Assembly: GCA_043825875.1 (NCBI GenBank) | Contig: JBDRRF010000068.1 | Location: 1-64,000, forward strand | Direction of reading: 5' to 3' | Origin: Pseudomonadota bacterium | GTDB lineage: Bacteria; Desulfobacterota; Desulfobacteria; Desulfobacterales; RPRI01 | Length of the DNA: 64,000 bases | Shown here: piece after piece, positions 33,001-36,000 of the stretch | Numbering within the stretch: position 1 is the first letter of the stretch | Layout of the letters: each line of letters starts with the position of its first letter | Program-made: the position numbers

Positions 33001-36000
33001 TAGTCTTTTCTCTATATTGATATCAAAAAACTCTTCTAATGGCTTAAATATTTCCGGATTATTTGTTTGTACATCCCGTAATGTCCCAATAACCTTCTCA
33101 AACCCCTTTAAGGTCAATTTCCCCAAAGGCCTCCTGCAACCTCCGGAAGGCATTCCGAGGATTGTCATTGCAGCCTTGATGGCAAGGGGGTTTCTTGCTC
33201 TGCAGACTACATCTCCATAGGGTGTGTTTTCCGTTGTTTTTACTGTAACAAGTTCAAATAAAGGATCAATAGCAGCCTTTAATTTCTTTGCTTCGGACTT
33301 ATTGCCCTGAATCAAAGCTTTTACCATTAAAACAACAGCTTTTGGTGCAATATTGGATATAACGGAAATAACCCCGGCCGCATTTATTTCCGGATCAGTC
33401 ATCATATCATAAGTTAAACCGTCATCGCCGGAAAGTATTTTATAATCAGCTCCGCAGCACTTTCTTGTTTTTTTCATATTATCCAAATTGCCTGTTGCTT
33501 CTTTTACTGTGTTGACATTACTGTGTTCCTTGAAAAGAATTGCTAAATCTTCGGGCAGCAACTGGGCCCCGGTTCTTCCGGGAATCACATATGGTATAAT
33601 ATCTATATCAGGAAAAGCGGAAGCAACAGGTTCTATATATTCTTTGCGTATTTCAAGAGAGCTGGGCCCATTGTAATAAGGGTCAACAAGTAATACGGCA
33701 TCAACTCCGACATTTGCTGCATGCTTTGTTGCAGCAAGGGCCTCTTTTGTATTATTGCTGCCGGTCCCGGCAATGCACATACATTTGCCCTTGGATTTTT
33801 TTGTAACTTTTTCTATAATTCCGTTGTGCTCATCCCATGTCAGAGTTGGGCTTTCGCCTGTTGTCCCAACGGCTAAAATTCCTGTTATTCCATTTGTAAT
33901 CTGGAAATCAATAAGTGTTGAAAGACCCTCATAATCTACAGAATCATTTGTAAATGGTGTCACAAGGGCGGTAAAGCATCCGGTAATCATAAAATCCCCT
34001 TCATTTCTGTTATTCATAATGTCTGTTTGCCTTTTTACTTGACAATCTTCTTGACAATCTTACTGTTGCATAATAACCCCTAATAAAAAAATCTCAAGGA
34101 TATAATTATGGTACAAGCAAAAAATGTAGAAGAATATATTGCTATGCAGAGAGCGGCTATCGCATCAAACCCTGAATGCGGTACGTCTCATTACAATCTT
34201 GCTGTAGCTTTGATCGGGCAAAAAAAATATGACGAGGCTGAGCAAGAGTTACAAGATGCTATTGGTTGCAGCCCCAGTCTGGCTGAAGCCTATGTGCAGC
34301 TTGGAGGTATTTGCTTGCAGCGTGGCGATCTTGACGGTTGCCTGCATTATAACACTCAGTCAATAAATTCACGGGCCGGCTTTTCCGAAGGTTATGGAAA
34401 TATAGGTTTTATTCATCTCCAGAAAGGTGACCTGGATAAAGCTATCGCAGCTTTAAAAAAGGCTATTATATATAACTCGAATTTTTTGCAGGCATATACA
34501 ACACTTGCTAATGCCTACCTTATGAAAGGCCTTGTTATAGAAAGCATAGAAGCAAGTCTGAAAGCTCTTGAAATTGAGCCGAATTTCGCGATCGCCCATA
34601 ATAACCTCGCAATATCTTATATGCAAAATGATCAATTTGATAAAGCTATTGAACATATTGATATAGCAATAAATCTTGGATATACTGTGGCACCGGAAAT
34701 TTTAAAGGAACTTGAACAATACAGGTAGCCACCCATTGTCGAAAAGTTTAAATCCACCAGTTAAGTTTTTCCTGACCGGTCAGGAAAAACTTATCAATCC
34801 TAGCAGCGAGCTCTGGAATACGCCGCTGCCTTCAAACAGAAATAATACACAAGTAAAATCGAGTAAAAATAATCCCGATACTATTACTTATGGAGATTAT
34901 TTTGAAGCTGCTGCTGCTTTTATTAAAAAAAATAATTATGAACCTATATTAGATGCATTGTCCTATTCAAAGCAGGAGATATGTCTTGAACAAATAGATG
35001 AAATACAGATTTTACTTGTAAAGCATGGTCAGTTTTATCATCCTGCAAAGGTTGTAGCCGTTACACTCAATCCCAACCCCCCCTTTGTTTTAAATGTTGC
35101 TGTATCACAAGACGGTATCAAATGTGCCGAAAATGAGTATTTGACTTTACAAAGGCTTCATAAAAAAATACCCAACGATTTTATTCCATTTGTGTATGGG
35201 TATGGCAGTATTATATCAAAAATAAACAATCTTCCTATCAGTATGTTTCTTGCACGGTGGTTTGAAGGATATAATGAATTTCATATTTCAAAGGACCCTG
35301 CAGACGGTAGAAATAAAATAATTGTGTGGGATCACATAAATGGCAATGTGTTTATATCAGATGATCATGCCACAGAGATATACAGGCAGGCTGCCATGAT
35401 AATGACCTATTTTTATAACATTTTTACATTTGAGCAGATATTTCCCTGGCATCATGCGGCAGGTGATTTTGTTGTAAAGAATACAGATAACAAACCGGAT
35501 GTGAAACTCATAACTGTTAGACAATATACTTCTTTATACGCAATAGAGAATATGGCCGATTGTTTGGTTGCAGATTCTAAAGAGGTCTTTGAAGGATTAC
35601 TGATGTTTCTTGCAGTACTTTCAATAAGGATGCGTCTTGATAGGTTAGATGGAACAGGTGATATAGTCTGGGCTGATAACAGAGCGGTCGAAGGAACAAT
35701 AAAAGGCTTTATGGATGGGATGCTTATGAAAGTTGAATCAAATATGATTCCAGGTGATTTTAATCATAAACTTATAGATTATCTCTTATCCTATTCTAAA
35801 GATCAATTGATGGAGCTATTAACTATTGTTGTAAATTCATTTAACCAATCAGCACCGGATATCATGGTTATAAACAAAAACTTGCCCAGACATTCCGGGG
35901 AATTATATGAGGCAATAAGAAATTTTTTAGCTGTATCCTGACATTCCTTTTTTATTGACAAGGAAAAATAATAATTTTATACGATAAACTCCTTCGAAAT

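Follow-up and report, generated by a model that had tools for sequence, protein, structure and literature searches.

A protein-kinase-like orphan with a pseudokinase-type site, linked to dsrAB in Desulfobacterales, may be an optional accessory of sulfite reductase

The gene directly upstream of dsrA in this member of the Desulfobacterales encodes a 401-aa orphan (here called KIN) with a predicted protein-kinase-like fold and a pseudokinase-type site. We tentatively favor, with less than even confidence, the view that KIN assists, as a nucleotide-dependent but optional accessory, in the maturation of the DsrAB cofactor. In the phylum of the Desulfobacterales, KIN is a single-copy protein of mostly vertical inheritance, and its family, with 899 representatives at 50% clustering, has no name. 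Desulfobacterales are major sulfate reducers of sediments (PMC11887813, available in part). The loading of DsrAB with siroheme-[4Fe-4S], and its regulation beyond DsrD, are poorly described in the literature that we searched, and we can now name four testable genes next to dsrAB: KIN, a TPR gene, a YkgJ-type gene and a HEAT gene. Bacterial pseudokinases also gain with KIN a sizeable family whose invariant site is unusual, and some other rewired kinase folds have proved to carry new chemistry. We found no description of KIN and its neighbor genes in the literature within our reach, beyond which most subscription papers lay. Older papers on dsr operons may list these genes as hypothetical ORFs.

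The window, the whole stretch of 64,000 nucleotides that was analyzed, holds the features in Table 1. The preliminary description had placed the orphan directly before dsrA with an adjacent TPR gene, and both ORFs are real. The longest KIN frame runs from 34712 to the stop at 35941 (409 aa); the start at the TTG codon at 34736 gives 401 aa, and the Atlas record begins at the same point. The TPR protein is a TPR-repeat protein (Pfam TPR_1, four stretches, E 4.5e-26, 90 bits against a cut-off of 27.8). KIN itself had no Pfam match over the cut-off and no NCBIfam match, its profile reached a best E of only 0.07 against PDB sequences, and no relatives were found in viral contigs or in a plasmid collection. 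YkgJ1 belongs to a subfamily different from that of the KIN-linked YkgJ2, which in this genome lies on another contig. A full-length HEAT protein was not found in this genome.

Table 1. Features at the dsr locus (positions in the window)
Feature	Position	Strand	Description
YkgJ1 (YkgJ/CxxCxxCC protein)	31917..32714	+	PF03692; context gene
dapA	32956..34017	-	TIGR00674 over cut-off; divergent from TPR gene; co-conserved inside the order
Promoter-like motif	34051..34080	+	TTGACA-N12-CATAATAACCCC, upstream of TPR gene; unusual spacing
TPR gene	34108..34728	+	206 aa; dsr-linked ortholog family; stop 7 nt before KIN start
KIN	34736..35941	+	401-aa orphan; predicted protein-kinase-like fold, APH/choline-kinase-like architecture, pseudokinase-type site
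dsrA promoter, sigma70-like (predicted)	35955..35983	+	TTGACA-N17-TATACG, between KIN and dsrA; conserved
dsrA	36139..37449	+	TIGR02064, 619.5 bits (cut-off 392.85)
dsrB	37462..38607	+	TIGR02066, 469 bits
dsrD	38673..38912	+	PF08679, E 1.8e-30
dsrN	38925..40370	+	CbiA/CobB-type amidase; name from homology and position

The AF2 model of KIN (pLDDT 93.0, pTM 0.92) has its elements in the order of an N-lobe β-sheet with αC, a hinge, and a C-lobe with β6-β9 and helices. All of the 50 best Foldseek matches were kinase-fold proteins (E 3.0e-5 to 4.1e-4, TMq 0.27-0.37), the same outcome as in the preliminary description, and the top matches were protein kinases. Full structural alignment, in contrast, put small-molecule kinases ahead of protein kinases among the matches listed. 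The best solved fold listed was NahK (4ocj; Z 13.3, rmsd 4.5, 253 aligned), and corramycin phosphotransferase and APH(2'') reached Z 12.9, compared with 9.9 for PknB. All of the listed Foldseek and VIA matches are of the protein-kinase-like (PKL) superfamily, and the modeled fold of KIN is a PKL fold. The kinase-like fold proposed earlier was thus reproduced, but the solved folds nearest to it among those listed belong to small-molecule kinases and not to protein kinases.

KIN is similar to APH/choline-kinase-like small-molecule kinases and to Bud32 in having two lobes, an N-terminal helix and a helical C-terminal part. It aligned at Z 12.4-13.3 over 218-253 residues with N-acetylhexosamine 1-kinase (4ocj), corramycin phosphotransferase (8agy), APH(2'')-IVa (4dbx), type II homoserine kinase (2ppq), methylthioribose kinase (2olc) and Bud32 (4ww5). 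However, identity to these proteins is 8-11% (rmsd 3.7-5.4), there is no Pfam APH match, and KIN has WHHAAGD and ITVR in place of the HxDxxxxN and DFG-type Asp residues.

The residues at the site were counted in 254 aligned homologs and in 150 representatives at 50% clustering. Catalytic positions were mapped by the order of secondary-structure elements, not by residue-level superposition, and on this mapping N120, H239 and T260 are the putative equivalents of the β3 Lys, the HRD Asp and the DFG Asp. The canonical residue occurs at each of the three in 0 of the 254 homologs. Among the representatives, position 120 is Asn in 122/150, position 239 (HRD/HxD) is His in 139/150, and position 260 is Thr in 131, Ser in 14 and Ala in 5. 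Position 134, in the middle of helix 125-144 and matching the αC Glu, is acidic in all 150 (Glu 139, Asp 11). Position 244, the place of the catalytic-loop Asn that is a metal ligand in canonical kinases, is Asp in 150/150 and able to bind metal. The near-invariant residues are K96, G98, E134, W175, E181, H183, W238, G243, D244, R262, R300, D302 and H386; ten residues (K96, G98, E181, H183, W238, G243, D244, R262, D302 and G306) are each found in 150/150. The motifs noted before were found again, here as KHG..YH, WHHAAGDF and RxDR.

A pseudokinase is defined as lacking at least one of K, D and D (PMC4718504, available in part), and on the mapping used here KIN fits this definition. The earlier caution that KIN may be a pseudokinase was well placed. 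Because three catalytic residues are missing and another set of residues is near-invariant, we regard KIN as a pseudokinase whose nucleotide pocket is probably rewired. KIN is not a conventional kinase, and the mapping places in it none of the β3 Lys, catalytic Asp and DFG Asp of a canonical active kinase of either the ePK or the APH/choline-kinase type.

It is highly improbable, in our judgment, that DsrAB, DsrD or DsrC is phosphorylated by KIN as an atypical but active Ser/Thr/Tyr protein kinase with a WNK-like relocated lysine. The ranking of protein kinases at the top by Foldseek, the invariant K96 with acidic position 134, and the activity of WNK and Bud32/PRPK without a β3 lysine (PMC4718504, in part) all favor such an enzyme, but the absence of the catalytic and DFG Asp residues from all 254 homologs and the precedence of small-molecule kinases in the full structural alignment argue against it. 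More generally, the suggestion of a protein-kinase regulator has weak support at most, because the fold is nearer to APH/choline-kinase-like enzymes.

The site also bears on whether KIN might be an ATP-sensing pseudokinase scaffold, acting in the manner of STRADα with a helical-repeat partner in allosteric tuning of DsrAB or DsrD. KIN resembles STRADα (GLR motif) in its missing canonical residues and in the Arg at the third DFG position, and WNK in having a lysine outside β3. It differs from both in being bacterial, in its APH-like architecture, in having Asp and not His at the Asn171 position, and in a lysine at the start of the Gly-loop and not in β2; no sequence relationship to either was shown. 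In STRADα, an Arg in the DFG motif replaces the cation, and the protein binds ATP cation-free and works with MO25 (PMC4718504, in part). TPR and HEAT-repeat genes often adjoin KIN, and allosteric activation of DsrAB by DsrD is already described (PMC8794893, available in part). Against a bare scaffold, the numerous invariant His, Arg and Asp residues outside the nucleotide site (H183, H239-H240, R300-D302 and H386) would better suit an enzyme or ligand pocket, and KIN is kept in genomes without dsr genes. We think a scaffold of this kind unlikely.

SelO and SidJ are kinase folds that transfer something other than phosphate and that retain the metal-binding DFG-position Asp. By analogy, KIN could be a repurposed kinase fold whose target is a Dsr protein or cofactor and whose transferred group is AMP, an amino acid or a phospho-His intermediate. 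This could account for its conserved non-canonical site, with its His at the position of the catalytic base and its invariant Asp, Arg and Lys. However, KIN has no metal-binding Asp at the DFG position, and SelO, SidJ and NiRAN chains were not among the listed Foldseek or structural-alignment matches. We consider this role very unlikely.

KIN was found in 99 of 121 genomes of the order, where 27 of 31 had been reported before, and in 65 of 401 genomes of the phylum; related genomes are not independent observations. dsrA is present in 206 of the 401 phylum genomes and in 61 of the 65 carriers. There is no KIN match in 145/206 dsrA-positive phylum genomes and in 14/107 dsrA-positive order genomes, and KIN is therefore dispensable for DsrAB in general. 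It is not a core component of the Dsr pathway, one present in nearly all genomes with dsrAB and in none without. No distant homolog of KIN or of its sister family was found beside dsrAB at E 0.01 when 40 regions around dsrA, none longer than 18 kb, were searched (32 from KIN-negative genomes and 8 from genomes with KIN elsewhere). Four genomes (G176, G236, G264 and G292) have cleanly lost KIN and provide natural presence/absence pairs among close relatives.

Of the 93 order genomes that have both genes, 77 have KIN immediately before dsrA, and contig breaks explain some of the remaining 16. Among 80 named loci, dsrA lies downstream of KIN in 63/70 that could be tested. Six order genomes have KIN with no dsrA match; two carry a dsrA fragment at a contig end (G405, G428), two stop at a contig edge (G486, G488), and two have other genes downstream (G438, G455). 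In split loci (G318, G417, G463, G464), TPR-KIN remains upstream, usually with dapA. Synteny within the order is not diagnostic of a link between KIN and dsr, because dapA is linked just as tightly (65/66 testable loci).

Outside the order, nine families have KIN beside dsrA, dsrB or dsrD, and the gene orders number at least five. Of the 61 dsrA-positive phylum carriers, 44 have one of these genes no more than 5 kb from KIN, or 46 counting dsrN. In family f65, each of the 6 loci has KIN directly before dsrN and on its strand; in f90, it is near dsrN in both loci; and in one genome (G344) it adjoins a siroheme-decarboxylase-like gene. In three families (f86, f97 and f100), KIN is far from dsrAB. 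The arrangement once described as fixed upstream of dsrAB holds only for this order and for family f41. Of the proposal that KIN is a regulator or accessory factor of sulfite reductase, the accessory link to the dsr locus has gained support from the nine families and their several gene orders.

These data also speak to the idea that KIN plays no part in DsrAB and serves anaerobes more generally, as a small-molecule enzyme or a ligand-binding protein, its proximity to dsr being a slowly decayed ancestral arrangement. In three carriers that are 99-100% complete (G001, G183 and G299), KIN is full-length and retains its site residues, although none of dsrA, dsrB, dsrN, aprA, YkgJ2, full HEAT and the TPR ortholog was found. 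The three represent two genera and are nested among dsr-adjacent sequences in a quick IQ-TREE tree. A fourth dsrA-negative carrier (G271) has a KIN fragment at a contig end. The small-molecule kinases as closest listed folds, a sister family with no dsr link, the equal synteny of dapA inside the order and the separate dsrA promoter fit this idea as well. On the other hand, adjacency to dsr has outlasted at least five rearrangements in nine families outside the order, and the neighbors shared there are dsr, dsrN, TPR, YkgJ2 and HEAT genes, not dapA or ilvE. KIN occurs in just 4/195 dsrA-negative phylum genomes, all in one family, and among near-complete genomes of the order, five that lack dsrA (G413, G416, G446, G487 and G489) have no KIN match either. 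We judge a general enzyme to be rather unlikely.

The genes that recur beside KIN are dsrABD, dsrN, TPR, a YkgJ-type Cys-cluster protein and a Zn-ribbon/DVU0298 HEAT-repeat protein. The TPR gene was said to accompany KIN always. Inside the order it does (upstream of KIN in 76/76 testable of 80 named loci), but in the phylum it is within 5 kb of KIN in 34 of 65 carriers, where many loci have only ~1.5 kb of flank, and 14 carriers whose flanks reach 5.7 kb or more on each side have no TPR gene near KIN. The TPR ortholog also remains by dsrAB in genomes without KIN. In a set of 181 genomes, YkgJ2 was found in 23 of 27 KIN carriers, and dsrA in 38 of 39 YkgJ2 carriers. Two genomes (G039 and G077) have HEAT-KIN-YkgJ2-TPR as one block apart from dsrAB.

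DsrD, an allosteric activator of DsrAB (PMC8794893, in part), and DsrN, a siroheme amidase (PMC10504309, available in part), share the locus and plausibly the process with KIN. They differ from it in sequence and fold and in position, since KIN is upstream of the dsrA promoter and dsrD and dsrN are downstream. DsrN is also more widely distributed (1610 of 2070 Dsr genomes in PMC10504309, compared with KIN in 61/206 dsrA genomes here).

We postulate that the modeled cleft of KIN would still bind ATP or a related nucleotide. K96 would serve as a phosphate-binding lysine that has moved, R262, which takes the place of the DFG glycine, might replace the metal by analogy to STRADα, and D244, E181 and E134 would complete the site. 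KIN would then aid production of holo-DsrAB in an optional, nucleotide-dependent manner, the weakest step of the proposal. Together with DsrN, the Cys-cluster protein and the helical-repeat proteins, it might handle the siroheme(-amide)/[4Fe-4S] cofactor or deliver it; it would not phosphorylate DsrAB. The dsr-less carriers, the split loci, the separate dsrA promoter and the missing full-length HEAT protein in this genome count against such a role. In a bolder form, which we consider distinctly unlikely, KIN, TPR, YkgJ-type, Zn-ribbon/HEAT and DsrN proteins would make up an undescribed DsrAB maturation system, in which a rewired kinase fold (Lys, His, Asp and Arg for Lys, Asp, Asn and Asp) does new nucleotide-dependent siroheme-[4Fe-4S] chemistry or delivery.

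As predicted from its sequence, dsrA has its own conserved promoter downstream of KIN. TTGACA-N17-TA is found in 62/63 KIN-dsrA spacers, compared with 1.3% of rough shuffles, and in 0/76 TPR-KIN junction regions. A generic promoter scan missed it because that scan accepts only T as the sixth base of a -10 box. The promoter-like motif upstream of the TPR gene, in its strict pattern, occurs in 21/69 related loci, a count made without a shuffle control.

The named family nearest to KIN by language-model features is DUF6206 (PF19709; 0.94, 178/256 shared). Its members have kinase-like motifs and, unlike KIN, retain Lys, Asp, Asn and Asp. KIN was rejected as a member, with no hmmscan match (cut-off 30.4 bits) and an hhalign probability of 0.3 (4-sequence profile). 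DUF6206 had no match anywhere in this genome, and no dsr genes were among its annotated neighbors in 5 short loci.

A sister family without a name (L156:5119-6330), of which 40 proteins were found, matches KIN by hhalign at 98.2% (E 4e-14). Its neighbors are ABC transporter, SDR, EamA or B12 radical SAM genes, with no dsr genes and no consistent pathway among those annotated in 8 metagenome loci and two others (L156 and L157). It shares with KIN the predicted fold and the G, E, W, HE, GDF and R residues, and it differs in a shorter C-terminal part. At the position of K96 it has Gln, and its β3 ends with an invariant Lys (35/35), a place where KIN has Lys in 0/254. In the aligned sequences, the placement of Lys in the two families is a complementary pattern.

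KIN, the orphan protein encoded 5' of dsrABD-dsrN, represents a real, undescribed family of pseudokinase type within the protein-kinase-like (PKL) fold superfamily. The studied genome has one copy, which has no Pfam match above the cut-off, no NCBIfam match and no PDB relative by sequence. The family comprises 2893 proteins at 90% clustering (899 representatives at 50%), called hypothetical or uncharacterized wherever the source gives a name. The AlphaFold2 model (104-row alignment; pLDDT 93.0, pTM 0.92) again retrieved kinase folds with Foldseek, as in the preliminary description: all rows among the matches listed are of this kind (E 3.0e-5 to 4.1e-4, TMq 0.27-0.37). 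Membership in the PKL fold is thus firm as a prediction. However, "protein kinase" does not describe KIN best, because small-molecule kinases rank first in a full structural alignment against 48,161 representatives. NahK is the top match (Z 13.3, rmsd 4.5, 253 aligned), followed by corramycin phosphotransferase and APH(2'') (both 12.9), homoserine kinase (12.5), methylthioribose kinase and Bud32 (both 12.4); Rio1 reaches 10.4 and PknB 9.9. The top matches are tied, and so no single kinase family is singled out. The named family nearest by Atlas features is DUF6206 (0.94), to which profile tests do not assign KIN. In one genome, KIN is in three pieces (G406:C143:11558-12636), through either gene disruption or misassembly.

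The active site appears to be rewired. We mapped it by the order of secondary-structure elements in the model, not by residue superposition, and by the standard kinase motifs. Strand beta3 (117-122) reads F-V/A-L-N-V-A, which would put N120 at the position of the VAIK lysine. D244 lies directly before beta7, after a short helical turn, and would therefore occupy the Asn171 position, with H239 at that of the catalytic Asp; K-L-I-T-V-R past beta8 would assign T260 and R262 to the Asp and Gly positions of DFG. Lys120, Asp239 and Asp260 each occur in none of the 254 rows aligned (the 104-row alignment and 150 representatives, partly overlapping). Invariant in the 150 representatives are K96, G98, Y101, E181, H183, W238, G243, D244, F245, R262, D302 and G306, and position 134 is always acidic. 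It is very improbable that KIN is an active protein kinase. The DFG-region arginine and putatively relocated lysine are analogous to features of STRADalpha, in which Arg215 of GLR takes the cation's place, and of WNK, in which the lysine is relocated (PMC4718504).

Three weak matches led to a sister family of unnamed kinase-fold relatives (hhalign 98.2%, E 4e-14) with the same predicted fold. It has the G, E, W, HE, GD and R of the KIN site, Gln at the K96 position and an invariant Lys just past beta3 (35/35), where KIN never has one. A single invariant lysine per family, at complementary places, suggests that a phosphate-binding site has been retained. That KIN transfers something other than phosphate we consider quite unlikely. 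At L156:5119-6330, a member of the sister family (40 proteins found) lies directly 3' of a B12-binding radical SAM gene.

Among 401 Desulfobacterota genomes, which are partly related and hence not independent observations, 206 contain dsrA. KIN was found in 64 by single query and in 68 by profile; removing three weak profile matches, assigned to the sister family, leaves 65 carriers, 61 of them with dsrA. No KIN match was found in 145 of the 206 dsrA-positive genomes. Outside the Desulfobacterales, KIN occurs in 56 of 387 phylum genomes; within that order, 99 of 121 genomes have KIN, 107 dsrA and 93 both, with KIN <2 kb upstream of dsrA in 77 of the 93. In a quick tree the sequences mostly cluster by family, compatible with vertical descent and many losses.

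KIN is probably tied to the dsr locus, non-obligately. In 80 named loci of the order, TPR (the 206-residue gene next to KIN) is upstream in 76/76 testable cases and dsrA downstream in 63/70, but dapA is linked as well (65/66), and so synteny inside the order proves little. The informative signal is in loci outside it. KIN lies within 5 kb of dsrA, dsrB or dsrD in 44 of 61 dsrA-positive carriers (37/52 outside the order, in 9 families), in at least five gene orders: TPR-KIN-dsrABD; dsrABD-TPR-YkgJ2 facing KIN and HEAT; dsrABD facing KIN; KIN-dsrN divergent from dsrA; and dsrABD facing a CxxCxxCC gene and KIN. YkgJ2 (~210 residues, CxxCxxCC, PF03692) and HEAT (~360 residues, a DVU0298-family HEAT domain preceded by a Cys-rich N-domain, NF045662) recur near KIN and dsr, and KIN is probably a member of a loose four-gene accessory set with these and TPR. 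All four are together, apart from dsrAB, in two genomes (G039, G077). By hand count, 39 of 181 genomes have YkgJ2; 38 of the 39 also have dsrA, and 23 of the 27 KIN carriers among the 181 have YkgJ2. In the studied genome YkgJ2 is on another contig and DVU0298 is present in short form only. TPR, YkgJ2 and the Zn-ribbon/DVU0298-HEAT gene form a recurring dsr-linked set (L040:4825-8255, L070:4121-8080, L033, L035), also in genomes without KIN (L184, L186, L194).

The proposal that TPR always accompanies KIN did not hold: of the 65 phylum carriers, 34 have TPR at no more than 5 kb, and no TPR gene lies near KIN in 14 carriers whose flanks extend for 5.7 kb or more on each side. TPR orthologs remain beside dsrAB after clean deletion of KIN (G176, G236, G264, G292), where KIN is absent (e.g., G042, G046, G113) and where it is elsewhere (G238, G320, G313, G337); TPR is thus the more tightly dsr-linked gene, and by itself a DsrAB assembly candidate worth study. 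Conversely, three genomes (G001, G183, G299; 99-100% complete) have full-length KIN, its site intact except H97Y and H102Q, yet gave no match for dsrA, dsrB, dsrN, aprA, YkgJ2, full HEAT or the short TPR ortholog; DsrC-like genes occur in G299 alone among them. Set against the linkage outside the order, these make it possible, if somewhat doubtful, that KIN is a dsr-independent enzyme, near dsr through ancestry. A conserved promoter of dsrA itself, TTGACA-N17-TA, is in 62 of 63 KIN-dsrA spacers (1.3% in rough shuffles). Within the order some loci are split, TPR-KIN staying upstream, mostly with dapA. Judged from these sequences, TPR-KIN is probably its own transcription unit.

Beyond the computed fold, conservation and linkage, we tentatively favor, without great confidence, a KIN whose rewired cleft would bind a nucleotide and which would be an optional accessory to holo-DsrAB formation, through cofactor handling. 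Several features speak for this role: KIN is repeatedly paired with dsrN, a Cys-cluster protein and two helical-repeat proteins are encoded nearby, the architecture is that of small-molecule kinases, and the conserved set is rich in Arg, Lys and His. DsrN is a siroheme amidase (PMC10504309), and one carrier (G344, L059:8337-9347) has KIN adjoining a siroheme-decarboxylase-like gene (PF17805, PF22451). The same cleft and neighbors could belong to an ATP-sensing allosteric scaffold, which seems unlikely. No account of KIN and its partners was found in the literature searched, mostly outside subscription papers: in the accessible portions, "kinase" and "TPR" do not appear in PMC10504309, "kinase" in PMC10591310 or "phosphoryl" in PMC8794893, and PMC8528874, PMC2901600 and PMC11887813 hold nothing relevant to these genes.

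Features of the dsr region and its surroundings in the window
Feature	Position	Strand
Fused CdaA-CdaR-like ORF, 476 aa	27464-28894	
ilvE-YkgJ1-dapA block	30334-34017	
YkgJ1	31917-32714	+
REP-like element	32789-32886	
dapA	32956-34017	-
Direct repeat, dapA/TPR	34039-34061	
TPR gene, 206 aa	34108-34728	+
KIN, longest frame	34712-35941	
KIN, from TTG	34736-35941	+
dsrA promoter	35955-35983	
dsrA (then dsrB, dsrD, dsrN)	36139-37449	

The TTG start of KIN, 7 nt past the TPR stop, gives the 401 residues quoted earlier and also begins the Atlas record. The ilvE-YkgJ1-dapA block is kept 5' of TPR-KIN-dsrA in most Desulfobacterales loci. The element between YkgJ1 and dapA, presumably a REP, has GTAGGGCG ... 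CGCCCTAC ends and a GC-rich hairpin inside, and the divergent dapA/TPR promoter region has TTGACAATCTT twice with a 12-nt period. The single 476-residue ORF joins CdaA N-terminal, DAC and YbbR domains, giving a fused CdaA-CdaR-like c-di-AMP cyclase. Two more CbiA/DsrN-like paralogs are on other contigs of the studied genome, and family f65 has dsrN-like amidase genes in tandem (L037:7666-10500; L041:3826-6700; L191). In G348, NifU-N and class V aminotransferase (cysteine-desulfurase-like) genes are directly 5' of dsrA (L212:9365-12313), with KIN ~9 kb upstream; in family f49, qmoC and an HdrA/FlpD-type gene are immediately 5' of dsrA (L036:10208-13945).
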